The notes under the pieces were generated by a model. The model was not told the DNA's origin, did not search any database, and saw only the letters and a list, made by a program, of their open reading frames with translations. From Calditrichia bacterium (GTDB lineage: Bacteria; Calditrichota; Calditrichia; JAJRVZ01): 64,000 nucleotides of DNA. Positions 26,881 through 59,790 of this stretch are shown in pieces (within the stretch, counting starts at the first letter, position 1; each line of letters opens with the position of its first letter). The position numbers and the translations under genes are program-made. The stretch lies in assembly GCA_963765585.1 (NCBI GenBank), contig CAVXXB010000008.1, positions 271,532 to 335,531 of the forward strand, written 5' to 3'.

Positions 26881-27816
26881 TTACTTAATGAGGATCATCT
26901 TTTTCATCTGAGAGAAAGACCCGGAACGCAGCCTGTAGTGATAGATTCCTGATGCCAAATGTGAAGCATCATAGTTAACCTCATGCTGACCAGCATATAA
27001 CCTTTGATTCAGAATGGTGTCAATTTTATGCCCCAGGCTATTATAAATCTCAATTACCGTCTCTCCGGCTTCCGCTATTGAAAACACAATGCGTGTTTCC
27101 GGATTAAACGGATTGGGATAGTTTTGAGACAGATGGTATGAATGGCTAATACCAGGTCTCTCTATAGAGGTTACATCGAGAAATTTTGCCTGTATTGCCT
27201 TATCTGCATCCATTATTAAACTATCTGGATTCAAATCACCGCTAAGAGCGCCACTCCAGCTATCAAATATCCAGTCATCATCTGGAACGGCAGTTACCCA
27301 TACCACTGTTCCCGGTGAATAACTATTTCCCGGTGGATCATACAAAAGCTGGCCCTTTCCTATAATCCATGGGACAATTTTATACTGTGTGGGTGGTGAA
27401 AACCTGGCAATAACCGTCTTATCATCATCAATGTAGATGCTGTCAACGGGATTTGTACCACTTAAATCCCCACTCCATTCAGAAAAGGTCCAGTCATCTA
27501 AAGGCACTGCAGTAAGCGTTACCCAGGTTCCAACCTCATACAACCCGCCCACCGGATCCAACTCAACACTACCTGAACCATCCAGCTGGATAGAAAGAAC
27601 CTTTGGAATGAGCGGATTATTTAACCAATTTGGTCCGACACTATCCGGTGTAACCGGTCTTCTTTTAATATCTTCAAGCGAGAATTCGTCACTGCCTATA
27701 TCAAGTTTTCCCTGTATACGGGCCTGACCATCAAAATCATCAATGATAAAACTAAAATCACCCGTAGCAGAATCAATAGCCGGACTATTCTCTGAGAGTG
27801 CGCCACAAACCATCAT
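26881..27816 (-). CDS. C-terminal part of the split PL6 lyase: two divergent InlB-B-repeat domains plus a T9SS C-terminal sorting domain
   Basis: VGTWVTLTAVPLDDWTFSEWSGDLSG and PGTVVWVTAVPDDDWIFDSWSGALSG repeats. NYPNPFNPETRIVF...MILIK. Begins ...SENSPAIDSA, which continues the PL6 ORF after a +1 shift near 27797-27800. Confidence 0.75.
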   Translation of the reverse strand: MMVCGALSENSPAIDSATGDFSFIIDDFDGQARIQGKLDIGSDEFSLEDIKRRPVTPDSVGPNWLNNPLIPKVLSIQLDGSGSVELDPVGGLYEVGTWVTLTAVPLDDWTFSEWSGDLSGTNPVDSIYIDDDKTVIARFSPPTQYKIVPWIIGKGQLLYDPPGNSYSPGTVVWVTAVPDDDWIFDSWSGALSGDLNPDSLIMDADKAIQAKFLDVTSIERPGISHSYHLSQNYPNPFNPETRIVFSIAEAGETVIEIYNSLGHKIDTILNQRLYAGQHEVNYDASHLASGIYHYRLRSGSFSQMKKMILIK

Positions 27817-29056
27817 TTTCCAATGCTAATAAAGGATCAGTAATTAAAATTCCTTCTGGTTGGGTAATTCCCAGGCTGGCTCCATAAAAGATATTGGATA
27901 TCCAGGTCATATTTTCAGGTTCATCATCCTGATCAATCAGGGGACTCCTTGTTCCGGATACAATATTATTGCCAATGGTACAATCAAGTGGTGGCAGTGA
28001 TCTTTCGGTACTCACACCGGTGCCGATTGTGATGTTTCTGTAATTCTCGGTAAAGGTATTATGTAATATTTGTGCGTTTTTTACTTGAAAATATCGGTTT
28101 AGCGGGGAGTTTGGCACACCGTTCTCAATTGAGAGCGCAGATCTTGAGCCGTTACCGCCAAGTTGAGTAAAATAGTTATTATAAATAATATGATCTTCAC
28201 CGATGACACGAATTCCACCGGACTGACTATTGCCATTTCCATTAAAATAATTATTATATATTTTACCGTGATTACCATGACGTAATGTAAGAGTTCCTTC
28301 ACACTCGTAAAACGTATTGTAGCGAAACGTGTTATTACCCGATTTGTTTGAGATTATCTCAATTTCTCCGTCGCAGTTTTCAAAATAATTACTTTCTACC
28401 ACGGAGTAGGAATCATTCATGGAGTAATCGCTGGTTCCTATGCGGATGGTTTCACCGCCATTAAAACCCAGATTGGGACGATAGCCAAAGTAATTGTGAT
28501 CGATACGGTGATAGTGTGCCGGCGGATTGGCCACCCTGTCAAACCAGATAACCAGTGTTGTACCGTCATGGTTTTTACCATAGAAATAGCAGTGATCCAC
28601 ACGGTTATTAGTGCCGTACACAGAAACCCATTTATATCCAGTGCCCACGCTCTCCGGATTGTAGTTTATTATACCGGTATTTGTCAGGCGGCAATGATGG
28701 GATTCAGTTCCATCCCGGAATTCAATTACCGCGCTGCTGCTATTACTTCTGCCATTGAGGAACCGTAAGCCATCAACCACCAGATATGTGCCGGCAATTC
28801 TGAGAGAGGCAATTCCGGTCAAATTTACAAAACCAGGAGTTTCCGCCCTGAGCAGAATTGGATTACCCTCTTCCCCATTACCTGAAAATACAATATATGA
28901 GTTATGCCAGACACCATTTGCCATAGTCAATGTGTCGCCAGGCTGGGCCACATCCATGGCACTGTTTATTTCTTCCGCAGTCCTAACATAATAGTCGGTT
29001 GCTGTCGAGATTCCAAAGAGTAACAACAGAGCGAGTATCAGGTAATTGAGTTTCAT
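27785..29056 (-). CDS. PL6-family polysaccharide lyase (alginate / chondroitinase-B type beta-helix), catalytic part, frameshift-split
   Basis: Signal peptide. VAQPGDTLTMANGVWHNSYIVFSGNGEEGNPILLRAETPGFVNLTG...YLVVDGLRFLNG is the PL6 N-terminal pattern, followed by repeated beta-helix coils. Confidence 0.8.
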   Translation of the reverse strand: MKLNYLILALLLLFGISTATDYYVRTAEEINSAMDVAQPGDTLTMANGVWHNSYIVFSGNGEEGNPILLRAETPGFVNLTGIASLRIAGTYLVVDGLRFLNGRSNSSSAVIEFRDGTESHHCRLTNTGIINYNPESVGTGYKWVSVYGTNNRVDHCYFYGKNHDGTTLVIWFDRVANPPAHYHRIDHNYFGYRPNLGFNGGETIRIGTSDYSMNDSYSVVESNYFENCDGEIEIISNKSGNNTFRYNTFYECEGTLTLRHGNHGKIYNNYFNGNGNSQSGGIRVIGEDHIIYNNYFTQLGGNGSRSALSIENGVPNSPLNRYFQVKNAQILHNTFTENYRNITIGTGVSTERSLPPLDCTIGNNIVSGTRSPLIDQDDEPENMTWISNIFYGASLGITQPEGILITDPLLALENDGLWRTLRE

Positions 29057-29158
29057 AATTTTTCTTTCATAAATTCTGTTGTTTGTTGATTGCTATTTAT
29101 TGAACATAGATGACACGGAATACGCGGATTACCGTGGATAAAAATTGTTTTCGTCAGC

Positions 29159-29281: not shown

Positions 29282-29299
29282 TTTTCAAAAAATATAATA

Positions 29300-29665
29300 T
29301 TATTTTATTAAAATCATTTTTCGCGTCTTTACTGACCCTGAATTTGTCATAAGTGAATATATATATACGCCGCTTGCCATATTGCCGGCATCCCAATTAA
29401 CCATATATGCGCCAGCAGGCTGGCTTTCATTCACCAAAGTTACAACTTTTTGTCCTAGTGTATTGAATATACTTAACTCCACATCACTGACAGCCGATAG
29501 CCGATAGCCAATAGCCGTTACCGGATTAAACGGATTGGGATAATTCTGATGCAACACACTGGTAACTGGTAACACCTCTGTGCCCTTTGACATGACTGAA
29601 ACAGCCGGGCCGAGGCGGTCTTCCAACTGGGCAATATAGAGTGACCGTGGTTCCAGGCCGGGCAT
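29300..29665 (-). CDS. C-terminal part (linker + T9SS CTD) of the split beta-helix protein
   Basis: NYPNPFNPVTAIGYRL...KMILIK. This frame read upstream gives AQNYAIGCIGNITGQRPPAPFPDDDGYIEGSN, continuing the 502-aa ORF. Confidence 0.75.
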   Translation of the reverse strand: MPGLEPRSLYIAQLEDRLGPAVSVMSKGTEVLPVTSVLHQNYPNPFNPVTAIGYRLSAVSDVELSIFNTLGQKVVTLVNESQPAGAYMVNWDAGNMASGVYIYSLMTNSGSVKTRKMILIK

Positions 29666-29690
29666 ATTTGATCCTTCTATATATCCATCA

Positions 29691-31199
29691 TCATCTGGAA
29701 ATGGTGCCGGGGGGCGTTGACCGGTGATATTTCCTATACATCCGATCGCATAATTCTGAGCATGTCGGGGGTTGCTGGACGATTAGGTCACCATTGTTCA
29801 TATCACATGCCCATGCAACTGAATGAGCGATTGACCAACCATGACTGGTGCCGTAAAATCCGCGGTTATATAAGCCCAGCATACGCGGATTAAGACCAGG
29901 TCGCGGGCCATCCAATTCGACCAGGTTGTCATAGAGAATTCCCATGGTCCATCTGCGATGCCCTTCGCTGCTGGTATAGGCACCTGAGGATGTACAATCC
30001 ACAAATACACAACCGGATACCCAGCTCGTTCCATTTGAAACATAATGATGCCGTCCGTTTGTTGCATGACAATTTTTAAAAAGAATTTGCTGTGATGCGG
30101 TATACAATTGAAAATTGTATCTGAGCCCTCCCTCAACGGCAGAAACCGGATCCAGAGCATTACAATTTTCAACAGTAACCCGGGTTGCGGTATTGGTCCT
30201 GATGCCCGATAATCCAAAATGCAGCATGGTACAATCACGAACCCAGGCATCTTCTATCTGATAAAGATCAATAGCATTCCAGGCATGATTCGGATCACTA
30301 CCACCTAAGGTCTGAATATCGATGCGTAAATTTTCGATACCGATCTGTGTTTTTATATTGAAACGGGTATATTTGTAAATATAGGATTGAGACAATGCCC
30401 TTATTAGATGATTATAAATCGGGGCTCCGACGGTAATTTTATTACCATCTATTTCTTTGATAAACCGGTTAAAAACCAGCGGTTGTGATCCTTCCGACCA
30501 GGGCACATCAACACCCGGTTCCGCGCCGGTTGAGTCAGAATAGGTACCGCCATAATCAATTGCCTCAAGCCACTCTTTGGTGCAGGGGTGGACAACAATA
30601 ATATTATCACCTACCTGGTAATTTGCGGCGTTTTCCACCTCAAATGTTCTATCCCCGACTAACACAGTATCAGAAATAATATTTACCACTGACCCTGATT
30701 CCCCATCTGCCCATTTGGTTGTTCCGCCACCACCCGCCACAATCACCGTTCTTTGTACAGGATTATTGCCAGTTGCCTTTAGAATCGTATTCTGCAATGG
30801 ATCACTTCCATCACCCACACCACGAAGTACCACACCATTAAAACCAAACTTTATGGTTCCCTGTATTTCATACTCACCGGCTTTTAAAAGCAATGCCCCA
30901 CGTATACCGTTGCTATCAGCGGGCATCAGCGCGATCTGAAATAAGGCATTTTGAATATGAGCGGTATTATCCCCCTCGATGGGTTCGATTTCACTAACAA
31001 CCGGTACATTGGGAATTGGTTCTTCGCCGTTTTTATATCCGGCATAACTAAAATCCGGTATACGGTTTTTATTTTCGTCCTGTTCATAAACCAGGTTATT
31101 TTGATCATCATAATATACAATATTTGATTGCCAGGGGGTTTGGGATAAAAGCATTGATGGCAAAAGGACAATTAAAACAAATATTGATATTTTATTCAC
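29691..31199 (-). CDS. Secreted right-handed beta-helix (pectate-lyase-fold) protein, frameshift-split near 29762
   Basis: Signal peptide. DFSYAGYKNGEEPIP...GDNTAHIQNAL...LLLKAGEYEIQGTI...GVVLRGVG. The last ~25 codons look out of frame. Confidence 0.7.
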   Translation of the reverse strand: MNKISIFVLIVLLPSMLLSQTPWQSNIVYYDDQNNLVYEQDENKNRIPDFSYAGYKNGEEPIPNVPVVSEIEPIEGDNTAHIQNALFQIALMPADSNGIRGALLLKAGEYEIQGTIKFGFNGVVLRGVGDGSDPLQNTILKATGNNPVQRTVIVAGGGGTTKWADGESGSVVNIISDTVLVGDRTFEVENAANYQVGDNIIVVHPCTKEWLEAIDYGGTYSDSTGAEPGVDVPWSEGSQPLVFNRFIKEIDGNKITVGAPIYNHLIRALSQSYIYKYTRFNIKTQIGIENLRIDIQTLGGSDPNHAWNAIDLYQIEDAWVRDCTMLHFGLSGIRTNTATRVTVENCNALDPVSAVEGGLRYNFQLYTASQQILFKNCHATNGRHHYVSNGTSWVSGCVFVDCTSSGAYTSSEGHRRWTMGILYDNLVELDGPRPGLNPRMLGLYNRGFYGTSHGWSIAHSVAWACDMNNGDLIVQQPPTCSELCDRMYRKYHRSTPPGTISR

Positions 31200-33324: not shown

Positions 33325-34818
33325 TTACAAACTAAAACTATACGCCGCCGACCAGGCGTTCATACTTTCAGTCACATAATTGGTATTACTGAAGTATGAA
33401 TCATAATATCTGAGACGGCGATACTCATAGGCGATATCGATTCGGCCAAACTTATCTAAAAACACACTCGCCCCAAAGGTATATCCTTTAGCGGAAGGAC
33501 CTCTGTCTTTTATTGCCGCACCATCGGGAACAAAGGTTGCCGGAATGTCGCGATACCCTGCCATGAGCGATAAATAGTCAGCAACACGAAATTCAGCACC
33601 AAATTTTAATATACTCTGATCTACCTGTTCGCGCGCGGTATCATTCTCCCAGCTGTAATTATACTTGGTTTTGCTATAGGGTGTAGATTGATAATCCAGA
33701 GCAAATGTAAACCAATCTATTGGAGTTATACGCACACCAAATGAAAAAGTCCCCGGAATTTCAACTTCATCTTTGCCGCTGATGCTGGCAGTATTTGTAC
33801 CGGCAGTATCAGAAAATGTATCTGTATAGTTCCAATCACGGGTCATAGTATATGGTAATTTATAATTAAGCGCAAAACTGATCCGCTCAAATTTATATAT
33901 TACGCCAAGATCAAACTGCAATGCGTTGAAATCAGAGGTTCCAGCCGAATAGGCATCCACTGTATCATAGGTAAACCGAAACACATTATTTGCTTCAATC
34001 TCAAAGGTGCCCACTCTTTCCAGTGCCTGATAATCGTTGCTGCTGCCTGTCATGGAAGAAACACCTACTCCGAGTTTAAGATTGTCATTAAGTTCATAGG
34101 CCAGGGCACCCGCAATTGAGGTCATATCCCCACTGCGATCTCTTGTAAAACGCGACCAGGAGAAGGTATCCACTCCGGTAACCACCCTTGGCATAATACC
34201 ATATGCATCGAATCCAATATGAGGATCGAGATAGGTTATATTTCGATCGTAATCTAAAATTCTATTGTAACGATAAGCGGCACTAATTACAAACTTTTGC
34301 TCAGCGATTGAGAATGGATATGCCAGAACAACATTATTCAGACCAATTTTATCCAGTTGTTTTTGCCAGTCAGCAGCTTCCTCGCTGTATGGCTCGAGAC
34401 CCAATGGTGGTTCGGCGACCACATAGTTCGTATCCTCGGCCACTATTTCGTAATCATTCAAACCATTATTTGCCGGATCCGGTATATACAATCCTTCCAA
34501 ATAAAAAGCCATGGTCCAGTATATCCGGTTTGGCCGGTAATCCTGATTTTCCCGCCAAATCTGACTGTGACTATTGCCGGAGATTGAAAATGTAAAACTT
34601 TCTATATCGCTGAGGCCTGCAGAATTGTAAAAGATAGATGCTGCATCGCCGGTACTGGCCAAATATGCGCCGCCCATAGCCATGGCTCTTACTCCGGGTT
34701 CGGTTTGGTGGAAGAATCCCTGAAATGAGAGGTTATCTCCCCTGTGCTGCGCAGTGATAAGGGCCGGCAGGAAGACCAGAGTAAGTAGGATAACCAATTT
34801 TATATTCATATTTTTCAT
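33325..34818 (-). CDS. FadL/PorV-superfamily outer-membrane beta-barrel protein
   Basis: Signal peptide. GVRAMAMGGAYLASTGDAASIFYNSAGL N-terminal hatch motif, alternating beta-strand pattern, aromatic C-terminus. Confidence 0.6.
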   Translation of the reverse strand: MKNMNIKLVILLTLVFLPALITAQHRGDNLSFQGFFHQTEPGVRAMAMGGAYLASTGDAASIFYNSAGLSDIESFTFSISGNSHSQIWRENQDYRPNRIYWTMAFYLEGLYIPDPANNGLNDYEIVAEDTNYVVAEPPLGLEPYSEEAADWQKQLDKIGLNNVVLAYPFSIAEQKFVISAAYRYNRILDYDRNITYLDPHIGFDAYGIMPRVVTGVDTFSWSRFTRDRSGDMTSIAGALAYELNDNLKLGVGVSSMTGSSNDYQALERVGTFEIEANNVFRFTYDTVDAYSAGTSDFNALQFDLGVIYKFERISFALNYKLPYTMTRDWNYTDTFSDTAGTNTASISGKDEVEIPGTFSFGVRITPIDWFTFALDYQSTPYSKTKYNYSWENDTAREQVDQSILKFGAEFRVADYLSLMAGYRDIPATFVPDGAAIKDRGPSAKGYTFGASVFLDKFGRIDIAYEYRRLRYYDSYFSNTNYVTESMNAWSAAYSFSL

Positions 34819-34839
34819 GAAAAAATGCTCCTTATACTA

Positions 34840-35880
34840 TCAGTCATTCATGGCAAAGCCAAGTGAAAAACGATGTACAGAATCCAGATAATCTCCAAAA
34901 TCACTATAGGAATAATCCACCCGGATATTACTGTAGGCAAGTCCGAAACCCAGAGAGAATGATTCCGAATCATAGTTTATTTTATATCCACCACGCAGGA
35001 AAAGAATATTTTGAAATCCATATTCAAGTCCAATATTATATTGCTGATCAAAATCCCGCGGTTGAACCATATCAAAGGCAAGTAATAAGGTCTGACTCTC
35101 CGAATCCATAATCAGGCTCTCATTTCCCGATATCAAATAGGTTGCAATTCCGATATTAAGAGTCTGCGGCAATGGATACTGTTTCCCGGTATAAGTTTGT
35201 GTATATGATGTATCATTCTCAGCGTCATACCGCGTAATAATCTGTTCATCAATGTATCTCACATCCGGGCCAAAATTTCGAACCGTCGCTGCAATCTTTA
35301 TGGATCTGAATCCCGTATCATAGATCAGTCCGGCATCAAACATGATATTTCCGGTAGATTTTACACCAAGATCCTCCCGGGCATATTTTACGCTCAAGCC
35401 AAAGGAGAATTTTTCAGTTAACTGTTTGGCAAAAGACAGACCGAATACCTGCGCACCTGGTGTCAGAACTTCACCGGTATAACCAAGATATTTATCACCA
35501 ACAAAACCCAGAGCATCTACACTTGTCACACGTATCTCACCCACATCGGTCATCATTCCCTGAAAACCAAAGGTACCAAGACCGGGCACCGTATATGCCG
35601 CTGAAAGGGACAGATGTGTGATGTCCAGGAACCAATCAAGATAATCTGCAGCCACATCAATATTTTTAACATACACGAGACCGGCAGGGTTAAAATACAC
35701 TGCCTGTGAATTCATTGCAGTAGCAGACGCGGCCTCCCCCATGGCGGTATAACGGGCACTTGTCATCACCTTTAAAAATTGAAATGAGGTGGTACCAACT
35801 TTTTCAAAAGCATTTCCATTGGAAACACATAATGTCAAAGTCAACAGGATAAAAATGTAATATTTGTTATGTTTTTTCAT
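34840..35880 (-). CDS. PorV/PorQ-like outer-membrane beta-barrel protein
   Basis: Start set at MKKHNKYY (GAGGA 8 nt upstream). SFQFLKVMTSARYTAMGEAASATAMNSQAVYFNPAGL matches the PorV/PorQ family head. Confidence 0.62.
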   Translation of the reverse strand: MKKHNKYYIFILLTLTLCVSNGNAFEKVGTTSFQFLKVMTSARYTAMGEAASATAMNSQAVYFNPAGLVYVKNIDVAADYLDWFLDITHLSLSAAYTVPGLGTFGFQGMMTDVGEIRVTSVDALGFVGDKYLGYTGEVLTPGAQVFGLSFAKQLTEKFSFGLSVKYAREDLGVKSTGNIMFDAGLIYDTGFRSIKIAATVRNFGPDVRYIDEQIITRYDAENDTSYTQTYTGKQYPLPQTLNIGIATYLISGNESLIMDSESQTLLLAFDMVQPRDFDQQYNIGLEYGFQNILFLRGGYKINYDSESFSLGFGLAYSNIRVDYSYSDFGDYLDSVHRFSLGFAMND

Positions 35881-35902
35881 AATATTCCTCATTAACTCAA
35901 CA

Positions 35903-38188: not shown

Positions 38189-38203
38189 ATTAAGACCATC
38201 CTG

Positions 38204-45796: not shown

Positions 45797-48700
45797 TTAT
45801 TTAATCATTAACATCTTTTTGGTTGCCATAAAATTACGGGATTTGATCTGATAGAAATACAGACCGGTTGCCAGATTTGTATTGTGAAAATCTACAATAT
45901 GGGTTCCCGCAGTCATTTCCTTGTCAACCAGAACAGCAACTTCACGTCCAAGTACATCATATACTTTTAGTGTCGTCATACCCGCTTCTTTAATAGAAAA
46001 TTTAATCTTTGTTGACGGGTTAAATGGATTTGGATAATTCTGATCCAGGCTGTATACCAGAGGAACGGTACCTTCACCAAATTCTTCAACCGAAGAGAGT
46101 GTTGAATCGGCCCAATTCAGATCACCAATTGCCAAACCTGAGAATGAGATACCATATAATTCAGATCCACCCATAAGTGTCCAGTTATAATTTTCGGGAT
46201 CTTCATACATTGGATCAAAGCCAAAAATTGTGGTGGAATCAATTTCACCATCCGCAGCTTTAATCGGCACCTCTCTCACCTGAAATGTATCTATGTGGCT
46301 TACGAATGACGGTATGTCGGTATTGCCCTGGGCATCCATCAGATCACTATCACGACCATGGCCGGAAGTACGGCTGTTAGAGATGATAATGTCGCGTACG
46401 ATTGCCCCACCACTATTTTTCAGATAAAATACACGTGTGGCTGAATTATCGATAGTTAGATGCTCTAACAAGACTGGAGCGTCCGGCGTTGCGGCATCCA
46501 GATCAGAGTAATAACGTACACATTCGGCATCGATATTCGTAAATGTACAATTACGCACCGTTAACGATTCTAATGCGCCATCGGTTACCCATTTTTCTGT
46601 GTCAGAAATACGAAGAGCTTCATAACCGGTGCCATCGAACAGGCAGTCCTCAAAATGAACATCACCCGCTTTGATGTTTGTTTGAATATTAAAAGCATGA
46701 CCATCCGCTGTCAGACTTTTACCTTGAAAGAAATTATAAAAATCAACATCTTTTACCGTGATATCGGCACCGGCTTTGACAGTATCATCTGATGTATTAG
46801 CCAGACGAATTCCATATTTGGGTCCATGAGTCATTTCATGACCGCCATCCAAAACAACACCTATCAGGGTGAAGTCATCAAATACTCGGAAGATATCATC
46901 ACCGGATTTATCCGCCGCAGCATTAATAATGACTGGCTTCTCTGCCAAACCCGATTCAGCTAACACAACCAATGGTTTCATAACGGTCATGTCACTGTTG
47001 CTGATGGTTTTATACAGTCCGCCGCTGGTGATCAGCATGATGGTATCTACCTGACTATTATTATTGGCAAATTCAACCGCATCACGCAGATCCCACGTGG
47101 TATCGATCTTCAGAACACCACCAGGTACATTTGCTTCGGTAAAATTCACAGTCAGCGTGATATTGGAATCCATTTGTACTGTATCAGGATTTGCCATTCC
47201 ACCTAATGGATCACCCCATCCGGCGAATTCCCAGCCCAGATCTGGCACTGCAGTTAGTTCAACTACTGTCGCAGTATCGTAAGTATCAATAACCGGTTCC
47301 GGACTGGCATCAATACTACCCTGCCCCACGATATCAAAGGCAAGAGCAAATTGTGTCAGGGTGCTGGCAAAAGTGGCAGTTACATCCATTGCAGAATCCA
47401 CTTTGAAAGTCTTTGGATTTTCCGACCCGGATAATGCGCCACTCCATTCAACAAATGCCCAGGTTGAGGAATCAGGAACCGCGGTGATGGTTACTGAAGT
47501 TCCAACTGCATAAGTATCTTCAACCGGTTCCGGATTAAGAACCACATGTCCCAGACCAACCGAACTGGCTGAAAATGCGACTCTCGGTTTTACATCAACA
47601 AATTTCGCTGTTACAGTTTTATTATCATCCATGGTGACAGTGGCAACCGGATTATTCGGCGGAAATACCAAAACACCATCCCAGCTGTCAAATTTCCATC
47701 CTGGATCAGGATCAGCTGTCAGCGTTACCGTAGCACCTGAATCATAAAAAGGCCCTGCCGGATCTACTGCAACAATACCGTTACCATCCGTTTTAACCTG
47801 CAGCAAAAATTGTCCGGGATCGGTTTCCCAGCGCAAATCGCCCATGGCTTTTGCATCATCTGCAGCGCCACGCGCCGGTGAATTTGTTGCCAGACGATAA
47901 TCTAGCATGGCGGCATCCTTATAAAGGGGATCTTCGTCAATCATTCCTGCACCAATTGATGAAGATTCACCGGTATCAACCGGGCGAACATTAAAGGTAT
48001 CGGTATAGGAGATCGTAGAAGTACCGTATAAATCAACAGATTCGGACTGACCACCCATCTGATTGGACATGATACAATTTTTGATTGTTACATTTGTAGG
48101 ATATAAAGTACCACCATCAATACGGATCACCCTGTCATCGTTTGTCAGGGAGGTAGAATCCATTGTGACATGGTTAATGATCACTTCGGGATTGTAACCA
48201 ACCGCAGCGCTACCGAACTGAATCGCTTCCCGTCCGACATTTGTTATGGTTACATTCTCAAACAGTACATAATTCATCGCCGGGCCATCACCGCCAGTGT
48301 CATACAAGTTCCAGCCTTCGCGGATTGCGCCTGTTGAAATAGTATTTGTTACAATAAATGTATCGATTACGGTTTTTAAATAACCTCTTAGAAAATTTTC
48401 AGTATAGTCATGAAAATAACAGTCGTCGATTTTTAAAAACATTGATGTCGAGTCACCTGCATTCAGACGCAGGGCCTGTTTTGCCATTGGAGCGCCATTG
48501 AGACTACCATCAAATTCAAGGCCGATCAACGTCAGGCTGCCGCCGGAAAGTACTTCTATGTTGCGCATACTGGTGCTGCCTCCGGGACGATCATTGCGAA
48601 TGACAGGTCTTTCTGTTAGACCTTCACGTGCACGAATTGTCAGCACTTTATCAATTTCGATTTTATCTGAATCCATGGTATATACATAATCACCGCCATT

Positions 48701-48919
48701 GTCCATGAGTTCCAGAATATCGCCATCTTCAGCTGCCTGAACGGCATCATAAAGCGTATTTTCACCAGCATATACACGATGAATAGTTGGACCTTGTGCC
48801 GTTGCATCCCAGCGCAAATCTCCCAAATTGAAACCATCATCCGCAGCACCGATACTGGCAGATCCAGCCATTGGTGTATAATCGACGATTGGCGGCATCT
48901 GTATACATCGGGTCTGCAT
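45797..48919 (-). CDS. Main part of a ~1354-aa multi-module T9SS cargo: duplicated beta-helix-like module (copy 2), three InlB-B-type repeats, a third beta-helix-like module, CTD
   Basis: Sense in this frame starts near 48887 (VDYTPMAGSASIG...). Repeats PGWKFDSWDG, TWAFVEWSGALSG, LGWEFAGWGDPLGG. C-terminal module is paralogous to 31639..33093. NYPNPFNPSTKIKF...MLMIK. Confidence 0.75.
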   Translation of the reverse strand: MQTRCIQMPPIVDYTPMAGSASIGAADDGFNLGDLRWDATAQGPTIHRVYAGENTLYDAVQAAEDGDILELMDNGGDYVYTMDSDKIEIDKVLTIRAREGLTERPVIRNDRPGGSTSMRNIEVLSGGSLTLIGLEFDGSLNGAPMAKQALRLNAGDSTSMFLKIDDCYFHDYTENFLRGYLKTVIDTFIVTNTISTGAIREGWNLYDTGGDGPAMNYVLFENVTITNVGREAIQFGSAAVGYNPEVIINHVTMDSTSLTNDDRVIRIDGGTLYPTNVTIKNCIMSNQMGGQSESVDLYGTSTISYTDTFNVRPVDTGESSSIGAGMIDEDPLYKDAAMLDYRLATNSPARGAADDAKAMGDLRWETDPGQFLLQVKTDGNGIVAVDPAGPFYDSGATVTLTADPDPGWKFDSWDGVLVFPPNNPVATVTMDDNKTVTAKFVDVKPRVAFSASSVGLGHVVLNPEPVEDTYAVGTSVTITAVPDSSTWAFVEWSGALSGSENPKTFKVDSAMDVTATFASTLTQFALAFDIVGQGSIDASPEPVIDTYDTATVVELTAVPDLGWEFAGWGDPLGGMANPDTVQMDSNITLTVNFTEANVPGGVLKIDTTWDLRDAVEFANNNSQVDTIMLITSGGLYKTISNSDMTVMKPLVVLAESGLAEKPVIINAAADKSGDDIFRVFDDFTLIGVVLDGGHEMTHGPKYGIRLANTSDDTVKAGADITVKDVDFYNFFQGKSLTADGHAFNIQTNIKAGDVHFEDCLFDGTGYEALRISDTEKWVTDGALESLTVRNCTFTNIDAECVRYYSDLDAATPDAPVLLEHLTIDNSATRVFYLKNSGGAIVRDIIISNSRTSGHGRDSDLMDAQGNTDIPSFVSHIDTFQVREVPIKAADGEIDSTTIFGFDPMYEDPENYNWTLMGGSELYGISFSGLAIGDLNWADSTLSSVEEFGEGTVPLVYSLDQNYPNPFNPSTKIKFSIKEAGMTTLKVYDVLGREVAVLVDKEMTAGTHIVDFHNTNLATGLYFYQIKSRNFMATKKMLMIK

Positions 48920-49765
48920 CGATCATTCCAAGACCAATGGTGGAGGATTGCCTGATATCCACAGGACGGACATTAAAGGTATCGGTATAGGAGATTGTAG
49001 AGGTACCGAATAAATCGACAGATTCTTGATATGACGCCCATTTGATTGGACATAATACTATTTTTAATCGTTGCATTGGTCACATCGATAGTACCACCGA
49101 TCAATACGAATCACCCTGTCATCGTTTGCCAGGGAGGTAGAGTCCATTGTGACATGGTTAATGATCACTTCGGGATTATAACCGACTGCAGCACTACCAA
49201 ACTGAATCGCTTCCCGTCCGACATTTGTGATAGTTACATTCTCAAACAGCACATAATTCATCGCCGGGCCATCACCGCCAGTGTCATACAAGTTCCAGCC
49301 TTCGCGGATTGCGCCTGTTGAAATAGTATTTGTTACAATAAATGTATCGATTACTGTTTTTAAATAACCTCTTAGAAAATTTTCAGTATAATCATGAAAA
49401 TAACAGTCATCGATTTTTAAAAACATTGATGTCGAGTCACCTGCATTCAGACGCAGGGCCTGTTTTGCCATTGGAGCACCATTGAGACTACCATCAAATT
49501 CAAGGCCGATCAACGTCAGGCTGCCACCGGAAAGAACTTCCAGGTTGCGCATACTGGTGCTGCCTCCGGGACGCTCATTGCGAATAACCGGTCTTTCTGC
49601 CAGGCCCTCCAGGGCTCTGATGGTGAGGATTTTGTCGACTTCTATTTTATCCGAATCCATCGTATAAACATAGTCACCGCCACTATCCATCAGTTCAATA
49701 ATATCACCACTTGCTGCTGCCTGTATGGCATCATACAGCGTATTTTCACCGGCATATACAGCATG
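47798..49765. repeat. In-gene tandem duplication, 2 x 984 bp (328 codons per unit)
   Basis: The His of ..VHAVYAGENT at 49765 and of ..IHRVYAGENT at 48781 are 984 nt apart. The core ~420 nt are near-identical. Confidence 0.85.
48837..49076 (-). pseudogene. Middle fragment of the same gene, caught between two frame disruptions
   Basis: SYQESVDLFGTSTISYTDTFNVRPVD...GMIDADPMYTDAAN aligns with GQSESVDLYGTSTISYTDTFNVRPVD...GMIDEDPLYKDAAM of copy 2. Confidence 0.6.
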
Positions 49766-49858
49766 CACGGTTTGTGCTGCTACCGGGCCCCATCCAAGCG
49801 CCAGGATAGCTACGAACACAAATAAACTAAGTAACTTCGAGTTCATGTTTCCCTCCAA
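49064..49858 (-). CDS. N-terminal part of the same gene: signal peptide + copy 1 of the duplicated module
   Basis: Signal peptide LLSLFVFVAILALGWGPVAAQ. A 141-aa stretch differs from copy 2 by a single A/T replacement. Ends in out-of-frame residues after an extra base near 49099. Confidence 0.72.
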   Translation of the reverse strand: MEGNMNSKLLSLFVFVAILALGWGPVAAQTVHAVYAGENTLYDAIQAAASGDIIELMDSGGDYVYTMDSDKIEVDKILTIRALEGLAERPVIRNERPGGSTSMRNLEVLSGGSLTLIGLEFDGSLNGAPMAKQALRLNAGDSTSMFLKIDDCYFHDYTENFLRGYLKTVIDTFIVTNTISTGAIREGWNLYDTGGDGPAMNYVLFENVTITNVGREAIQFGSAAVGYNPEVIINHVTMDSTSLANDDRVIRIDRWYYRCDQCND

Positions 49859-52097: not shown

Positions 52098-53945
52098 TTA
52101 TTTAAGCATCACACTATAATTTCCACTCCAGGTATATTCCTGCGATCCAAATTTCACATGCATTGCTTCAGATTCTGAAGACACACCATTATTTACCATC
52201 ACTTGCCAGCGAATATTGTTCTGCCCTAATACTTCCACTACAGTGCCCGTCTCATTATGACCAATTATGCGTACTGTTTGAATTACCGGTTTTGCGTTAA
52301 CCGATTTTTCCTGCGCTTCATTAAAGTAACCGTGAGGTTCAATCACAGATGCAAACACACAATCCCCGGCTTCTGTCCTGGCAATATACAACGGCTCCGA
52401 ACGAAGGTTGAAGTTGGGATCGTTGGCGCCGATACCGCCGAATATCATTTCACTTTGCTCTGAAACAGCAGTTGAAACAGTATAGTATCTATTTCCATTC
52501 AACCATGTCACCTGTGTTGTATTTTCCGATTTTTCCGATTTACCTTCGTTCCAGATATGCTGATAACCGAAATTATCACCTAACGGTTTTTTTACCGTGA
52601 CATTTGTCTCATATTCAAAGTTTGTCATCATTAACTGACCGGTAAAATGGACGGGATAATCATATACATGCGAGTCATTACTTTCCAGACGATAAATATC
52701 AATAACTGCAGGATATTCAAGACGATCATCCTTTACCAGAAACATTGTTCGCTGCATCTTCACACCAGGATAATGATTATCTGCACGGGCACTCATGACC
52801 TGAACATCCGGTTTTGACATATCAAAAAAGTGACGTTTTCCGGATGTGGCCTCTGCCTCTTTCCTGTTGTAATTATTCTGAGTGTTTTGATCGACCACCA
52901 CTGTATTATGAGCAATGGTTTGCTTGGCATATGATTTATTTTCCGGGAGATACCTGCCGCCAAATTTGGTTTCTATATTTATCCAGCGGCCAAATCCATA
53001 GTCATTAATAATTTCACGCCCCTGCTGATAAAAAATATAGTGCAATTTATCAAAATGTCCGTGTCCTTCGCCGTGGACACCATATTTCATAAGCAACATG
53101 GTTTGAGATTTACCTTCACCGGTTCTTAATATTCCCAATCCACCCTGTTGGCCATCATAACCATCAGAAAATTCCACGCTTGGCCAGGTAAAATCGGGAA
53201 CGTTTTTCATTTCGTGATAATCCTGGGCCACTTTTAATCCGGCGCCGTTAAGTATGACCTCACCCTGTACATTTTTTACACCAAGTAAATTGATATCTTT
53301 TCCGTAACGATAATAACCAATATCGGTCGCTATTACGGGACCAGCGGCGGTAATATTCATTGTTTTTGAGGCATCGTTTATTGGCGGAAATGTGCCATCC
53401 GGAAAAGTGGTCATCAGGGTTGCGTACAGTGCTTTCTTTAATATCCCATCCCGGTATTCATATATTTTAATTTCAGGACGATTGCGCTCAAGTGCATCGG
53501 CAAACAGAAAGAATGGCCTGAGTGCGTAACGAATATAATACGGCCCTTCCATATAGTACCCGTCGGGTGAAAATAAAAGATCCAGTTGTTTCAGAAAGCC
53601 GCCCTCTCCATCTTTATTTGTCCCGTAAAGTGCCATATCGATAAGATTTTGATCATTCAGCACTATTCCAAGCATGCCAATCGAAGCGACAGTCCAGGTA
53701 CCGTGATTATGTATCCGGTTGAATTCTCTTGCATGATCAACCGTAAACCTGGGAATAATAACTTTGAAGATGTTCTTCTCAATTTTTTCGCGTTCCACCG
53801 GCGTGAGATAATTCATAAATACAATCATAGGCCTGTCCGGTATACACCAACCACACTGTCTCATTGAGCATTTGATGAAACAATCTTCCCGGTGCCTGAT
53901 TATGTGCCATTGGGTGTGGGCCCAATTTTGGATAAAACTCGGCAT
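52098..53945 (-). CDS. PL17 oligo-alginate lyase, C-terminal ~570 aa (frameshift-split near 53812)
   Basis: YLTPVEREKIE, RIHNHGTWTVAS, SPDGYYMEGPYYIRYALRPFFLFADA, PPINDASK, HGHFDKL. Confidence 0.8.
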   Translation of the reverse strand: MPSFIQNWAHTQWHIIRHREDCFIKCSMRQCGWCIPDRPMIVFMNYLTPVEREKIEKNIFKVIIPRFTVDHAREFNRIHNHGTWTVASIGMLGIVLNDQNLIDMALYGTNKDGEGGFLKQLDLLFSPDGYYMEGPYYIRYALRPFFLFADALERNRPEIKIYEYRDGILKKALYATLMTTFPDGTFPPINDASKTMNITAAGPVIATDIGYYRYGKDINLLGVKNVQGEVILNGAGLKVAQDYHEMKNVPDFTWPSVEFSDGYDGQQGGLGILRTGEGKSQTMLLMKYGVHGEGHGHFDKLHYIFYQQGREIINDYGFGRWINIETKFGGRYLPENKSYAKQTIAHNTVVVDQNTQNNYNRKEAEATSGKRHFFDMSKPDVQVMSARADNHYPGVKMQRTMFLVKDDRLEYPAVIDIYRLESNDSHVYDYPVHFTGQLMMTNFEYETNVTVKKPLGDNFGYQHIWNEGKSEKSENTTQVTWLNGNRYYTVSTAVSEQSEMIFGGIGANDPNFNLRSEPLYIARTEAGDCVFASVIEPHGYFNEAQEKSVNAKPVIQTVRIIGHNETGTVVEVLGQNNIRWQVMVNNGVSSESEAMHVKFGSQEYTWSGNYSVMLK

Positions 53946-54285
53946 ACTGCATGAGCATATTTTTTACAAAAGCGGCATATTTATCCTGACCCGTTATTAC
54001 ATACAAAACCCCGGCCTGCTGCATATCCCGGTAATTTTGTTTGTGTCTTTCATGGGCATAGCCACCGCCTTCACCTGGTGGTGGAAGGTCGGGTGCGATG
54101 TCGATGATGCCGTCGATATAAGATTTGGACTTGTTAAATGATGCATCAAGTAATTCATAATTACCAAGGGCATTTTTGATATTCTGGCCCTCTTTTTTAT
54201 TTATGAATAAGCTGGGATGATCTGAAAATCCTGTATTTGTAAAAATGAAAATTAGAGTAAGTATCAGAAATGTTGTTTTTGTCAT
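53779..54285 (-). CDS. PL17 oligo-alginate lyase, N-terminal part
   Basis: Start set at MTKTTFLILTL. HPSLFINKKE, GGYAHERHKQNY, LFHQMLNETVWLVYTGQAYDCIY, then out of frame. Confidence 0.8.
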   Translation of the reverse strand: MTKTTFLILTLIFIFTNTGFSDHPSLFINKKEGQNIKNALGNYELLDASFNKSKSYIDGIIDIAPDLPPPGEGGGYAHERHKQNYRDMQQAGVLYVITGQDKYAAFVKNMLMQYAEFYPKLGPHPMAHNQAPGRLFHQMLNETVWLVYTGQAYDCIYELSHAGGTRKN

Positions 54286-54342
54286 TATATGATTACTTTT
54301 TTTTACCACTGGGCACACAGAGTAATAATTATTTTATTATTT

Positions 54343-54498: not shown

Positions 54499-55203
54499 TT
54501 ACGGCATATATAAACCGCCGTTCACCTCGATGGTTTGTCCGGTCATGTAATCTGCCAGGTGTGATGCCAGGAATAGCACCACATTTGCGATATCTTCGGG
54601 TTTTCCGGCACGACCAAGTGGTACCATTGAGGGAATCTTTTCATGAACCTCTTTGGGAGTGAAAGTATTGTGAAAAACGGTATTTCCAATAAAACCTGGC
54701 GCTACACAATTGACCGTAATACCATGAGGTGCCAGTTCTTTTGCCAGTGACTTCGTAAAAGTCCAGATTCCACCTTTTGATGCCGCATATGCAGCAGCGC
54801 CACCACCACCGCCATCATGTGCAGCCTGAGAAGACAAGTTGATAACCCGGGCATTTTTCTTTTTCTTCAATTCCGGCATAATCACACTGGAGACGACAAA
54901 AGAGGTTTTCAGATTTACATCGATTACCGTTTGAAAATGTGCATCATCAAAATCCGCAACCGGAACCCGGCCAACCAGACCACCGGCATTATTGACCAGA
55001 ATATCGATGCCATCACCCAATTTCTTTGCTCCGGCAACCAGTTTTTGTGCTTCTTCTTTTTTTGTTACATCAGCAATCACCGCTTCAACTTTTCCACCGG
55101 CTTTACGAATTCCATCGGCAGCAGCGTTTAATTTTTCTTCATCCTGATGATTGTTGATGACCACACCGGCACCGGCCTCGGCCAGCGTGCGGGCAATCTG
55201 CAA
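54499..55203 (-). CDS. Short-chain dehydrogenase/reductase (KduD / DEH-reductase-like). The true start is probably the ATG at 55264, with a frame disruption near 55235.
   Basis: NNAGG, SSQAAHDG...YAASKGG (YxxxK). Upstream MKIDLTGKVV then VVTGSIQGIG lies in the adjacent frame. Confidence 0.8.
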   Translation of the reverse strand: MQIARTLAEAGAGVVINNHQDEEKLNAAADGIRKAGGKVEAVIADVTKKEEAQKLVAGAKKLGDGIDILVNNAGGLVGRVPVADFDDAHFQTVIDVNLKTSFVVSSVIMPELKKKKNARVINLSSQAAHDGGGGGAAAYAASKGGIWTFTKSLAKELAPHGITVNCVAPGFIGNTVFHNTFTPKEVHEKIPSMVPLGRAGKPEDIANVVLFLASHLADYMTGQTIEVNGGLYMP

Positions 55204-55337
55204 GCCAATACCCTGAATACTACCTGTAACAACAGACTACTTTTCCTGTAAGATCAATCTTCATCTTTAACCCTCTCCCATTTATATTTTAATTACAATA
55301 TTTATATCTGTATCGCTATCTATATCCTGAATCAATG

Positions 55338-56144: not shown

Positions 56145-56151
56145 ATGTCAA
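56123..56151 (-). promoter_or_regulatory. Sigma70-like promoter candidate for the GntR regulator gene
   Basis: The same TTGACA-N17-TATTTT arrangement on the minus strand, about 40 nt upstream of the ATG at 56084. Confidence 0.4.
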
Positions 56152-56577: not shown

Positions 56578-57603
56578 TTAAAATGAAAATCCTACAGAAA
56601 AGCGGTTTACACCTGAGAATATGTCAATATTTGAATATGAATAATTAAATTCAATATTATTATTACCTATATCCGTATCGAGACCAATACCAGCTGACCA
56701 GGAAGCCAGATCACGGTTGGTTTGATATCCTGCTCTCAGCGCAATCAGTTGCCAGAATTTATACTCCAATCCAAAATTAAATCTTTCAGAGAAATTATTT
56801 GGTTGAACAAAATCAACAGCCATGAGCAGATTAGTGTCCTTGTCATGTTCAGGATAGACAAGATCAAGTATGTCCATTGCTGCACCCAGTGTAAAAGTCA
56901 TTGGTAATTGTTCATATATTTCTTCCCGCTTTAAGTCCGAGGAAAAATTTCGGATAGTCATACCAAAACGGAAACTCTTTAAGCCTGTATAGTACTTTAC
57001 CCCGGCATCAAAGATCAGTTTGGTGGCATCATTATCTTTGAGGTTATCCGTCATATAGGTCTGGCCAAGATTCTGACCGGCCAGCCTGATACTCCCGCCT
57101 AAAAAGAACTGGTCACTGATAGATTTAGCATAACTGATACCAAATGTATATGCTGCCACATTATCAACCGGTCCAGTATCTTTATATCCCAGAGGATACG
57201 ACCCGCTTTCTGAACTATGAAGCAATTGCGTACCATTAATCGTGCCATAATCCACACTCAAAAAACTTACACCCAGCGTTCCATAAATACCGGCATTCCA
57301 GGCCGCCGCCCCGGCCATATAATTGATATCGGCAATCCACTGTGTCACGAAAAATTTGACTTCAAAACTTCTTTCCATTTCAACTAGAGCTGCAGGATTG
57401 CTGAAGATACTCTCAATCCCAGTTCCTGTGGCATTATTGGCTTCACCCATGGCACTGGCCTGAGGAGATATATTGACCAGGAGAAAACTCATTGTGCTCT
57501 GGGCAATCTTGTTCAGTCCCACCTGGGCTGTGGCATGTGGGATCATAAATGATATAATTATAAGGATTGTGTTAAGTACACGAATGCTTTTCATGCAAGC
57601 CAT
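56578..57603 (-). CDS. PorV/PorQ-like outer-membrane beta-barrel protein (second copy)
   Basis: STMSFLLVNISPQASAMGEANNATGTGIESIFSNPAAL. Ends ...RFSVGFSF. Confidence 0.62.
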   Translation of the reverse strand: MACMKSIRVLNTILIIISFMIPHATAQVGLNKIAQSTMSFLLVNISPQASAMGEANNATGTGIESIFSNPAALVEMERSFEVKFFVTQWIADINYMAGAAAWNAGIYGTLGVSFLSVDYGTINGTQLLHSSESGSYPLGYKDTGPVDNVAAYTFGISYAKSISDQFFLGGSIRLAGQNLGQTYMTDNLKDNDATKLIFDAGVKYYTGLKSFRFGMTIRNFSSDLKREEIYEQLPMTFTLGAAMDILDLVYPEHDKDTNLLMAVDFVQPNNFSERFNFGLEYKFWQLIALRAGYQTNRDLASWSAGIGLDTDIGNNNIEFNYSYSNIDIFSGVNRFSVGFSF

Positions 57604-57617
57604 CTCCTGTTACTGAA

Positions 57618-58907
57618 TTAGCGAACTACGATAAATTTCTGATATGAAAGTTCCCCATTGGGTTTTTCAAAGACCACTATATATACACCGGAGCTGATAA
57701 CCTGCTGATTCATGGTTACCATATCCCAAAATACATAACCCGAACTGACCGGACTGTCGTGGTCAATGGTCTGCACCAGGTCACCATTTTCAGTAAATAT
57801 CTTGATCATGACTTTCCCAGGCAGATTAAAAAACTGTATACCTCGATAATCTGTCCATCCCTGTTCAGAAAGGAGAGGATCATTAATATTATACGGATTG
57901 GGCACAATTCGTATCTCGGACAGGTTTTCCTGTGAAAACCGGGGCGGATTGATCCATGAAATATTGGGATGCATTACCCGGCTGCTGTAAATAATCTTTC
58001 CGCGTGACAATGGATCAGCATTGAGATCATCTTCTGCTATTAGGGCTTTGGACTGTATATAATAATAGTATTGCGCCCCGACCAGCACTTCTATATCTTC
58101 ATATAAATGCTCTTCTGCCTTATCTTGCGGCCCGGAGGAATAAATTGTTTCGTAAAAAACTGTATCAAGATTAGATATTCTGCGCTGGATACGGTAACCG
58201 GCAAAATTGGTCATGGCCTCGGCTTCCGGATCACTCCATTTGATCTCTACCCCGGTTCCAAGACCGGTAATCTCTATATTTGTCGGAGGTGAAGGTGCAC
58301 GCGGGATCTTATACCCGTGATCAAAATTCCATTTGGCTCGCCAGGCACTTTTCATTAGGGAGTCAACACCGGTACTGATCCAACGGTCTTTGATTTTATC
58401 CGATTCGGTTGCATCGAGCGGATAAACAAACTCAGCCGGAAAATAGCCGGTTTCACTGTCGGGTAATCCGGGTGGGTCTTCAAGTGTGCCTCTGAGCCAT
58501 TTTTCGCCTATCAACTTCGCTTTTTGTGCACTGAGGCCGGAAAAACCGCTGGCATATGCCACACGAACTTTTTGCCCGGGTGCAAAAGTGTAAGGACCAA
58601 AGCTGCTCCACATTTTGGAATTATTGGAAGATTTAGTCCCCGCCGGATGAGCAGAATAATCGGCACTACCGACCTCATCAGTATTACCTGCGTGATATGT
58701 TCCGGGCCAGGTGTTTCCACTCATTGGGAATAATTTGGCGTACTCTCCGCGAATAGCCCAAAAATTGTTGTCGCCGTATTCATCCCCTTCACTGTTATAC
58801 GGGATAAGATTGCTTTTTCCGAAATAGGTGACCTTTGGGTTGTAAAAAATCATCCACGTCATTGACTGCATCCACATAGGGGGCCTGGGAAGCATGAAGA
58901 ATCGCAT
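57618..58907 (-). CDS. C-terminal part of the second ~760-aa FN3/CTD protein (frameshift-split near 58833)
   Basis: FGPYTFAPGQKV, FN3-like PSPPTNIEITGLGTGVEIKWS...YYYYIQS, CTD IVPNPY...VMIKIFTENGDLVQTI...SGVYIVVF...KFIVVR. Confidence 0.62.
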   Translation of the reverse strand: MRFFMLPRPPMWMQSMTWMIFYNPKVTYFGKSNLIPYNSEGDEYGDNNFWAIRGEYAKLFPMSGNTWPGTYHAGNTDEVGSADYSAHPAGTKSSNNSKMWSSFGPYTFAPGQKVRVAYASGFSGLSAQKAKLIGEKWLRGTLEDPPGLPDSETGYFPAEFVYPLDATESDKIKDRWISTGVDSLMKSAWRAKWNFDHGYKIPRAPSPPTNIEITGLGTGVEIKWSDPEAEAMTNFAGYRIQRRISNLDTVFYETIYSSGPQDKAEEHLYEDIEVLVGAQYYYYIQSKALIAEDDLNADPLSRGKIIYSSRVMHPNISWINPPRFSQENLSEIRIVPNPYNINDPLLSEQGWTDYRGIQFFNLPGKVMIKIFTENGDLVQTIDHDSPVSSGYVFWDMVTMNQQVISSGVYIVVFEKPNGELSYQKFIVVR

Positions 58908-59790
58908 ACCAGATAAAATTCTGATTGATCAGCCGCCCACCCTGGGTGACCACTGGTGATCCCATATTATCGCCTGGAACATCCGGGTTATCGGCGCTGT
59001 ACTCATAAAAGACACGCATGGTATCACCGACACGACCGCCATAATAGTGCTGCCAGGTCGCCGCGAAATCCGGCCTTTCAGCCGAGGCAGGCACAGGATT
59101 GTTGCCCAGGGATCGATATGTGTTCTGGCCATTTGATTCTACATTAATATAAAAATCGTACAGCGTATCAGCACTTACATTCTCAAATTCAACATCAACA
59201 ATGATATAATCGTTATTCAGACTCTGCGACCATGACATAATCCGGCGATTCACCTGAACACCCAGGATATTCTCAGCGGTGACTTCAACAATCTGATCAT
59301 ATGTCTCATCACCAAACTGGTCCGGATCGTATGTGCCAAAATCATCCAGCTCTACCGGTTTAAAATCGATAATCTGAGTTGGAAATTTGTAGCGGATAAA
59401 ATTAGTCATGGGTACTACTACTTTTCCCTGGGGCATGAAATCATTGGTAGGTCCAAATACGGCTGCTAAATGAAGCGTATCGATAGGATCGACCCAGTTT
59501 GTAGCGGTCAGTTTGAACCCTGCTCCCACCCAGGCATCCTGTTGTTGTCCCCGGACACCAATAATATCATAATCATTGGGGAAAAATCCGGCACGGTAAT
59601 CAAAACTGCTTTTTGCCCCATTGGCTGTGACACCGGCCCAGACGCGTCCCATTTTCATCAGGGCTTTTTCCAACTCGGGCTGGGTTTGACTAAAGACGGT
59701 TTGTGTAGATATAATCAGAATCAGAATTGTCAAAATGCAGATCAAGCTATTTCTTGAAATGTTATGTCGTAATTTCATCCATTTCTCCAT
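58795..59790 (-). CDS. N-terminal part of the second ~760-aa FN3/CTD protein
   Basis: Signal peptide. YDPDQFGDETYDQIVEVTAENILGVQVNRRIMSWS aligns with the 761-aa paralogue. Joins the next ORF as ...DDFLQPK|VTYFGK. Confidence 0.62.
   Translation of the reverse strand: MEKWMKLRHNISRNSLICILTILILIISTQTVFSQTQPELEKALMKMGRVWAGVTANGAKSSFDYRAGFFPNDYDIIGVRGQQQDAWVGAGFKLTATNWVDPIDTLHLAAVFGPTNDFMPQGKVVVPMTNFIRYKFPTQIIDFKPVELDDFGTYDPDQFGDETYDQIVEVTAENILGVQVNRRIMSWSQSLNNDYIIVDVEFENVSADTLYDFYINVESNGQNTYRSLGNNPVPASAERPDFAATWQHYYGGRVGDTMRVFYEYSADNPDVPGDNMGSPVVTQGGRLINQNFIWYAILHASQAPYVDAVNDVDDFLQPKGHLFRKKQSYPV

Follow-up and report, generated by a model that had tools for sequence, protein, structure and literature searches.

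Surplus bases splitting six genes of a Calditrichia alginate locus are very probably errors of the draft-genome consensus

The window analyzed here, a stretch of 64,000 nucleotides from a Calditrichia bacterium (contig CAVXXB010000008.1 of assembly GCA_963765585.1), contains a locus resembling the alginate utilization loci of the FCB group. The latter comprise PL6, PL7, and PL17 lyases, an SDR reductase for unsaturated uronate, a KdgK-type kinase, and a TonB-dependent receptor. Similarly, the window encodes PL6, PL17, PF05426, and heparinase II/III-type lyases, an SDR, a PfkB kinase, and two TonB-dependent receptors. Unlike the FCB-group loci, this one lacks a SusD partner; after each receptor come a protein of ∼760 aa without a Pfam match and outer-membrane proteins of the PorV or FadL type, and several enzymes bear T9SS sorting domains. 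The presence of the intact PF05426 lyase (Table 1) shows that the locus begins upstream of the left boundary drawn in the preliminary description. Related loci were present in Calditrichota MAGs, and among the matches listed the closest PL17 homologues came from Calditrichota, KSB1, and Marinimicrobia MAGs.

TABLE 1 Genes and sites of surplus bases in the window (surplus base in square brackets, minus-strand letters)
Feature	Position	Strand	Context or reading	Basis or remark
Additional alginate lyase PF05426, intact	25443..26660	-		Pfam 5.8e-80, profile positions 7-275 of 275
PL6 alginate/chondroitinase-B-type lyase, InlB B-repeat domains, T9SS C-terminal sorting domain	26881..29056	-		Pfam on both pieces
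PL6 site	27799	-	CGC[A]CTC	
Right-handed beta-helix protein, T9SS sorting domain	29300..31199	-		Pfam
Beta-helix site	29762	-	ACA[T]GCT	
Multi-module DUF4957/DUF5123/beta-helix protein, T9SS sorting domain	45797..49858	-		ORFs, frames
Multi-module gene site 1	49099	-	GAT[C]GGT	
Multi-module gene site 2	within 49023-49041	-		
Multi-module gene site 3	within 48878-48893	-		
PL17 oligo-alginate lyase	52098..54318	-	corrected reading AYDCIYDYLTPVEREK	Split by one surplus A
PL17 site	53813/53814	-	ATG[A]ATT	
SDR (short-chain dehydrogenase)	54499..55264	-	corrected reading MKIDLTGKVAVVTGSIQGIG	Cut ten codons past ATG by surplus T
SDR site	55234	-	TAG[T]CTG	Correction restores GKVAVVTG
Protein of ∼723 aa beside TonB-dependent receptor	57618..59790	-		Frames
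Site in gene beside TonB-dependent receptor	within 58827-58842	-	CAACCCAAAGGTCACC	Sole site of the eight adjoining a homopolymer

Six minus-strand genes of the locus are each cut into overlapping open reading frames (ORFs), and all eight breaks reported in the preliminary description were found where it had placed them. Comparison of ORF frames revealed that every junction leads from frame f to f+1, i.e., one base has to be skipped, and the frames downstream of all eight junctions remain open. Each site holds one surplus base when set against an intact counterpart, which was the same-genus genome G001, a tandem repeat within the gene itself, or class-wide homologues. The contigs of G001 are SPAdes NODE contigs. 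The earlier impression of predominantly nonhomopolymeric contexts lacking a common motif was borne out, as the eight contexts differ from each other and only one adjoins a homopolymer.

The PL6 gene consists of two ORFs (27785-29056 and 26881-27816), which with one base skipped give a stop-free reading of 724 aa; in the DNA alignment, G001 contig C367 reads WRPAANSP in a single frame. The beta-helix gene (ORFs 29691-31199 and 29300-29665; 632 aa when read through) was aligned to G001 contig C215, where QQPPTAQNYAIGC lies in a single frame. In the multi-module gene, all three surplus bases are located at the end of module 1 of two 88%-identical tandem modules, and self-alignment of module 1 with module 2 contained exactly three one-base gaps. 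Its G001 orthologue is intact with 1342 aa, compared to 1352 aa for the read-through product from the window. For this gene, we also considered that a lone -1 shift might stand for two of the +1 shifts, but rejected this because the intermediate frame, GGTIDVTNATIKNSIMSNQ, is backed by both the gene's own second module and G001.

The PL17 orthologue in G001 (737 aa) is likewise intact, and its alignment to the window switches between two frames at 53812/53813. Among the matches listed, full-length PL17 homologues mostly measured 706 to 757 aa, with a few multi-domain forms of ∼1,100 aa, and covered 96 to 100% of the fused query. The database record of the window's own protein is a 576-aa fragment only. 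In the SDR gene, the Pfam match of the downstream ORF starts only at profile position 11-15; alignment to G001 identified an intact orthologue of 258 aa. A Pfam search with the protein next to the TonB-dependent receptor, previously labeled a second FN3/CTD protein, returned no match. The downstream piece of its gene aligns to a paralogue in the window (35903-38188), and 45 of the 86 class genomes contain homologues. Most of these are uninterrupted frames of ∼700 to 780 aa, and many align over the junction, which lies at approximately residue 317.

Comparison with a sister genome, as the preliminary description had proposed, thus showed a single frame in G001 for every testable gene (PL6, beta-helix, multi-module, PL17, and SDR). 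Amino acid identity to G001 on either side of the breaks was 75 to 88%, equal to that of unbroken genes. No assembly of the same species was found in protein and contig collections searched with two intact neighboring genes, and a search with the read-through PL17 protein revealed no copy above 79% identity besides the window's own fragment.

Break density was determined across the genome against 196 G001 orthologues, an unbiased sample from the 20 largest G001 contigs. Within 235 kb, we counted 41 frame changes (17.4 per 100 kb), 35 of them +1 (∼85%) and 6 of them -1, corresponding to a ratio of insertions to deletions of ∼6:1. Altogether, 28 of the 196 orthologues (14%) were broken, and extrapolation from this sample gives ∼850 sites genome-wide. 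The reciprocal control on the same G001 DNA scored 8 events, most of which mirrored breaks of the genome under study, leaving an estimated 0 to 2 genuine ones. A separate paralogue-based scan yielded 181 split genes distributed over all large contigs (138 +1, 39 -1, and 4 with in-frame stops), i.e., 177 frameshifts versus 4 in-frame stops. Since antisense shadow ORFs and residues preceding true starts distorted the raw count of stops inside tblastn HSPs, a filtered count was used; essentially no isolated nonsense codons occurred in 74,000 aligned residues, and internal stops were only found in clusters marking out-of-frame stretches. A homology-free scan, in which hexamer coding scores were used to compare a frameshift model with a separate-gene model, had no discriminating power: the known sites scored low owing to nearby start codons, and many of the hits are likely false positives.

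Throughout the genome, the insertions were mostly outside homopolymers and without a common motif. Duplicate or strain-variant contigs were also present. Contig C19 duplicates part of C5 at 99.3% identity, but 14 indels of one or two bases, most of them not in homopolymers, separate the two. C7, C17, and C18 are strain-variant duplicates at 94 to 95%, with 69 gap openings in 7.6 kb between C17 and C18.

Genes of very diverse function were affected. rpoB is broken once, inside Rpb2 domain 2, where a run of T5 reads as T4, and two breaks divide rpoC into three ORFs that carry Rpb1 domains 1-3, 4, and 5, respectively. All three breaks are -1 and within conserved catalytic Pfam domains. Both genes, located on contig C12 at 491 to 500 kb, are indispensable and single copy, with the NADFDGD motif occurring once in the genome. 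Further broken orthologues include those for glutamate dehydrogenase, butyrate kinase, a tail-specific protease, an RND permease, a LacI regulator, and ABC and sodium-solute transporters. In general, conserved core genes were struck at the same rate as the rest.

The preliminary description had implied that the confinement of the breaks to the polysaccharide locus and their uniform direction were distinctive. Neither stood up to comparison with the whole genome, whose rate predicts 5.7 breaks in 32.9 kb against the 8 seen [P(≥8) = 0.22]; the probability that all eight are +1 is 0.28. Because breaks at 17.4 per 100 kb, ∼85% of them +1, occur genome-wide, the eight in this locus are unremarkable. 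The ∼25 kb upstream were indeed without breaks, as noted before, being collinear with G001 over 4 to 16 kb and containing full-length Pfam domains. With P(0) = 0.012 (plain Poisson, genome-wide rate), this clean stretch indicates that error density is somewhat uneven; it is the only part of the pattern that is unusual, and mildly so. Clean blocks of 12 to 18 kb exist elsewhere in the sample (L015, L021, and L028), and density between 20-kb blocks was mildly overdispersed (dispersion test, p = 0.055).

Judged from these sequence comparisons, the eight breaks are very probably uncorrected single-base insertion errors in the consensus of a contiguous draft genome. We infer that sequencing or assembly, rather than mutation in the cell, gave rise to them; error-prone reads from what would be a long-read platform, at modest coverage, are the most likely source. 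With 22 contigs, 5.56 Mb, and 93% completeness, the assembly resembles a MAG. The first explanation offered earlier, a systematic insertion-type consensus error, is thereby supported, whereas its qualifier, that such errors cluster where polishing is misled by strain variants or repeats, is unnecessary, since the errors are genome-wide and hit core genes, including rpoB and rpoC, equally often. Three of the eight breaks do lie at the end of the 88%-identical tandem repeat, so that in these cases the repeat may have had a local influence.

Spurious pseudogenes of this kind have precedent. Long-read errors are dominated by indels, which raise the number of pseudogenes called in MAGs, especially when coverage is low (Cusco et al. 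2021, PMC8103633), and many purported bacterial pseudogenes are assembly artifacts (Cooley & Wright 2024, PMC11017572). The present case shares several features with them: one-base indels split otherwise conserved genes of any function over the whole genome, they are absent from the short-read assemblies of relatives (here G001, assembled with SPAdes), indels far outnumber nonsense codons, and small or duplicate contigs are worse affected. The textbook Nanopore error is the homopolymer deletion; in contrast to that usual description, insertions here outnumber deletions by ∼6:1 and are mostly nonhomopolymeric.

A variant of the artifact, rather than a biological alternative to it, would be a chimeric consensus, in which related strains were coassembled and the polisher created spurious or mixed indels where haplotypes differ. 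In that case, break density would follow microdiversity, and genuine minority alleles could underlie some of the breaks. The strain-variant duplicate contigs, the mild overdispersion between blocks, the window's 0 breaks in 25 kb versus 8 in 33 kb, and the three breaks at the end of the internal repeat fit this reading, but breaks on all large contigs and in core genes such as rpoB and rpoC at an undiminished rate make it unlikely as the main cause. Population heterogeneity, the third option raised in the preliminary description, is not required to explain the data. That a minority of the eight insertions (e.g., the three at the end of the tandem module) are real segregating alleles mixed with assembly noise has a very slim chance of being correct; if so, some cells of the population would no longer possess secreted alginate lyases and would live as "cheaters" on oligo-alginates that other cells release.

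The deposited sequence does carry the breaks, and 6 of ∼25 genes of one catabolic locus are affected, as genuine and very recent pseudogenization would predict if the alginate pathway, or the whole genome, were decaying via real one-base insertions. However, broken rpoB and rpoC together with 14% of the sampled orthologues are incompatible with viability, nonsense mutations are nearly nil, and there is no sequence decay near the breaks. Spontaneous indels in bacteria are deletion biased and concentrated in homopolymers, as opposed to the largely nonhomopolymeric, 85% insertion set found here. Because the testable genes are intact in G001 and the lesions are of the same type as the noise across the genome, being neither locus specific nor shared with G001, the recent inactivation of the pathway suggested earlier is unsupported, and we regard it as highly improbable. 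Programmed recoding by +1 ribosomal frameshifting or quadruplet decoding at the sites would agree with eight of eight events in the window being +1 and with frames that stay open downstream, but it would demand ∼850 sites genome-wide. The sites (CGC-A-CTC, ACA-T-GCT, GAT-C-GGT, TAG-T-CTG, ATG-A-ATT, and CCCAAAGG) share no motif, same-genus orthologues are unshifted at these positions, and -1 events coexist (6 of 41, and all three in rpoB and rpoC). Recoding is thus effectively refuted by the lack of a shared signal and of conservation, and its probability is close to nil.

With consensus indel errors as the favored explanation, the breaks serve as a quality flag: consensus indels probably split approximately one in seven genes of the assembly. 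Findings of a "pseudogene," "split gene," "truncated domain," or "recoding" from this genome are therefore to be presumed artifactual pending reads. Automated annotation will under-call its polysaccharide-degrading capacity, for instance with respect to PL17. The six genes are probably intact in the organism and the alginate utilization locus is probably functional, and the locus should be read as intact.

An ORF map and three-frame translations confirmed the eight junctions in six genes reported in the preliminary description, with the frame moving by +1 at 8/8 of them. Each break was located by comparison with an intact reference. In a comparison genome of the same genus (G001), the locus was collinear, and the genes for PL17 (737 aa), the multi-module protein (1342 aa) and the SDR (258 aa) were all uninterrupted; on G001 contigs C215 and C367, a single frame ran through the beta-helix and PL6 junction regions. 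DNA alignments revealed exactly one surplus base in the window at each of the PL17, SDR, PL6 and beta-helix sites. For the sixth gene, which encodes a ∼760-aa-family protein next to a TonB-dependent receptor, no relative was found at the DNA level. Of 86 genomes of the class, 45 encoded homologues, frequently with 2 to 3 copies each; these were mostly single open frames of ∼700 to 780 aa, and many aligned across the junction.

Within the multi-module T9SS protein, a DUF4957-type module (∼870 nt, ∼290 aa) is tandemly duplicated at 88% identity, and the G001 orthologue likewise has a two-module layout. Alignment of module 1 to module 2 revealed three one-base gaps in module 1, which confirmed three +1 events and ruled out a combination of one −1 and one +1 event, a reading supported by the G001 comparison.

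Coordinates of the features discussed (window positions unless a contig or segment is named; surplus bases in square brackets on the minus-strand sequence)
Feature	Position	Strand	Details
Alginate-type polysaccharide utilisation locus	25.4-63 kb	-	
PF05426 alginate lyase	25443-26660	-	locus member
PL6/chondroitinase-B-type lyase	27799 (break)	-	locus member; CGC[A]CTC, DNA alignment
Beta-helix protein	29762 (break)	-	locus member; ACA[T]GCT, DNA alignment
Heparinase II/III-type lyase		-	locus member
PfkB kinase		-	locus member
First receptor set	33325-41050	-	TonB-dependent receptor, ∼760-aa protein without Pfam match, PorV- and FadL-like outer-membrane proteins
Large DUF4957/DUF5123 multi-module protein	47908-49760 (tandem duplication)	-	locus member
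Module 1	∼49760-48890	-	one-base gaps at 49099, within 49023-49041, within 48878-48893
Module 2	∼48776-47908	-	
PL17 oligo-alginate lyase	53813/4 (break)	-	locus member; ATG[A]ATT, DNA alignment
SDR	55234 (break)	-	locus member; TAG[T]CTG, skipping T restores GKVAVVTG; DNA alignment
Second receptor set	56578-63079	-	TonB-dependent receptor, ∼760-aa protein without Pfam match, unannotated 341-aa ORF
Single ORF, split in G001	8700-9587		G001 orthologue: segment L027 (G001:C18), 5571-6469
D-2-hydroxyacid dehydrogenase gene	12940-13875	-	
GxxExxY-family small-gene remnant	18295-18584	-	
54-aa open frame	18927-19091	+	LamG/concanavalin-like C-terminal motif IDEVRIYNKALTQKEIQELM
rpoB and rpoC	G000 C12:491608-499508	+	outside the window

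Two independent genome-wide tests covered all 22 contigs (5.56 Mb) of the assembly. In the paralogue test, stop-to-stop ORFs of ≥70 aa were compared all against all, and adjacent same-strand ORFs matching contiguous parts of one paralogue were scored; it yielded 181 strict split cases spread over all large contigs (138 +1, 39 −1 and 4 in-frame stops). In the orthologue test, ORFs from the initial 20 kb of each of G001's 20 largest contigs, chosen irrespective of function, were aligned to the window's genome (G000). Across 196 orthologues and 235 kb aligned, 41 frame changes were detected (35 +1, 6 −1), a rate of 17.4 per 100 kb; 14% of the genes were broken, and block-to-block dispersion was only marginal (p = 0.055). 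Extrapolation gives ∼850 breaks in the whole genome. The reciprocal search scored 8 events in G001, most of which on inspection mirrored G000's own breaks, leaving an estimated 0 to 2 genuine ones.

The polysaccharide locus is thus not special: the same lesions occur genome-wide, and its 32.9 kb carry 8 breaks versus 5.7 expected (P = 0.22), all eight being +1 with P = 0.28 given the genome-wide bias. The ∼25 kb upstream is indeed free of breaks, with 4-16 kb collinear with G001 by single-frame matches and full-length Pfam domains in the other genes. Under a plain Poisson model such a clean stretch has P = 0.012, and clean 12- to 18-kb blocks recur in the sample; uneven coverage and strain heterogeneity are candidate causes of the clean 12- to 25-kb blocks.

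Several further observations were made in this upstream region. The D-2-hydroxyacid dehydrogenase gene is missing from the otherwise collinear G001 segment. One ORF corresponds to two overlapping ORFs in different frames in G001, which probably reflects a rare frameshift in G001 itself. A GxxExxY remnant, spread over at least 3 frames and missing its middle part, lies in a ∼950-nt gap without a long ORF, and the isolated 54-aa frame probably represents a fragment of a gene.

Several observations speak for the breaks being an artefact. Outside the window, the single-copy rpoB and rpoC genes are split into two ORFs and three overlapping ORFs, respectively. The rpoB cut lies in Rpb2 domain 2, at a T5 run that is read as T4; the rpoC pieces carry Rpb1 domains 1 to 3, domain 4 and domain 5, with one cut just upstream of an invariant segment of 27 residues. 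All three breaks are −1, and two resemble a base lost from a T run. The organism could not survive with such lesions. Breaks also affect orthologues of unrelated function, among them those for glutamate dehydrogenase, butyrate kinase, tail-specific protease, transporters and an RND permease. In the G001 comparison, the flanks of each break were conserved like intact genes and showed no decay; isolated nonsense codons were essentially missing from aligned orthologues, and the internal stops that did occur were always clustered, marking short stretches read out of frame. Comparison of the eight contexts again found no shared motif, and since orthologues are also unshifted, programmed recoding was excluded.

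G000 contig C19 is a 99.3% copy of C5:69425-83603 with 14 indels of 1 to 2 bases, mostly outside homopolymers; C7, C17 and C18 overlap at 94 to 95% with many one-base indels between them, C17 versus C18 showing 69 gap openings in 7.6 kb. Disagreement of this kind typifies a poorly corrected long-read consensus and not coding-sequence evolution. Small contigs among C19, C5, C7, C17, C18, C13 and C10 duplicate parts of larger ones and are likely strain-variant or low-coverage contigs inflating the bin. Contig and protein searches with window genes found no independent same-species assembly on record. The main error type in long reads is the indel, which raises the number of pseudogenes called in MAGs, especially when coverage is low (PMC8103633), and assembly artefacts account for many of the pseudogenes claimed in bacteria (PMC11017572), descriptions that match the pattern in G000 exactly. 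Its 6:1 insertion bias outside homopolymers, however, is unlike the classic Nanopore signature.

The preliminary description of the eight breaks is accurate for this window, but they are almost certainly no more than a typical sample of the assembly noise seen across the genome, a warning flag for any other frameshift, pseudogene or split-gene finding in this genome. Several locus enzymes end C-terminally in T9SS sorting domains, and the closest relatives and the nearest PL17 homologues come from Calditrichota, KSB1 and Marinimicrobia MAGs. No SusD was found in either TonB-dependent receptor set, and the ∼760-aa family may represent a SusD-independent receptor partner. The alginate locus itself is best regarded as intact.
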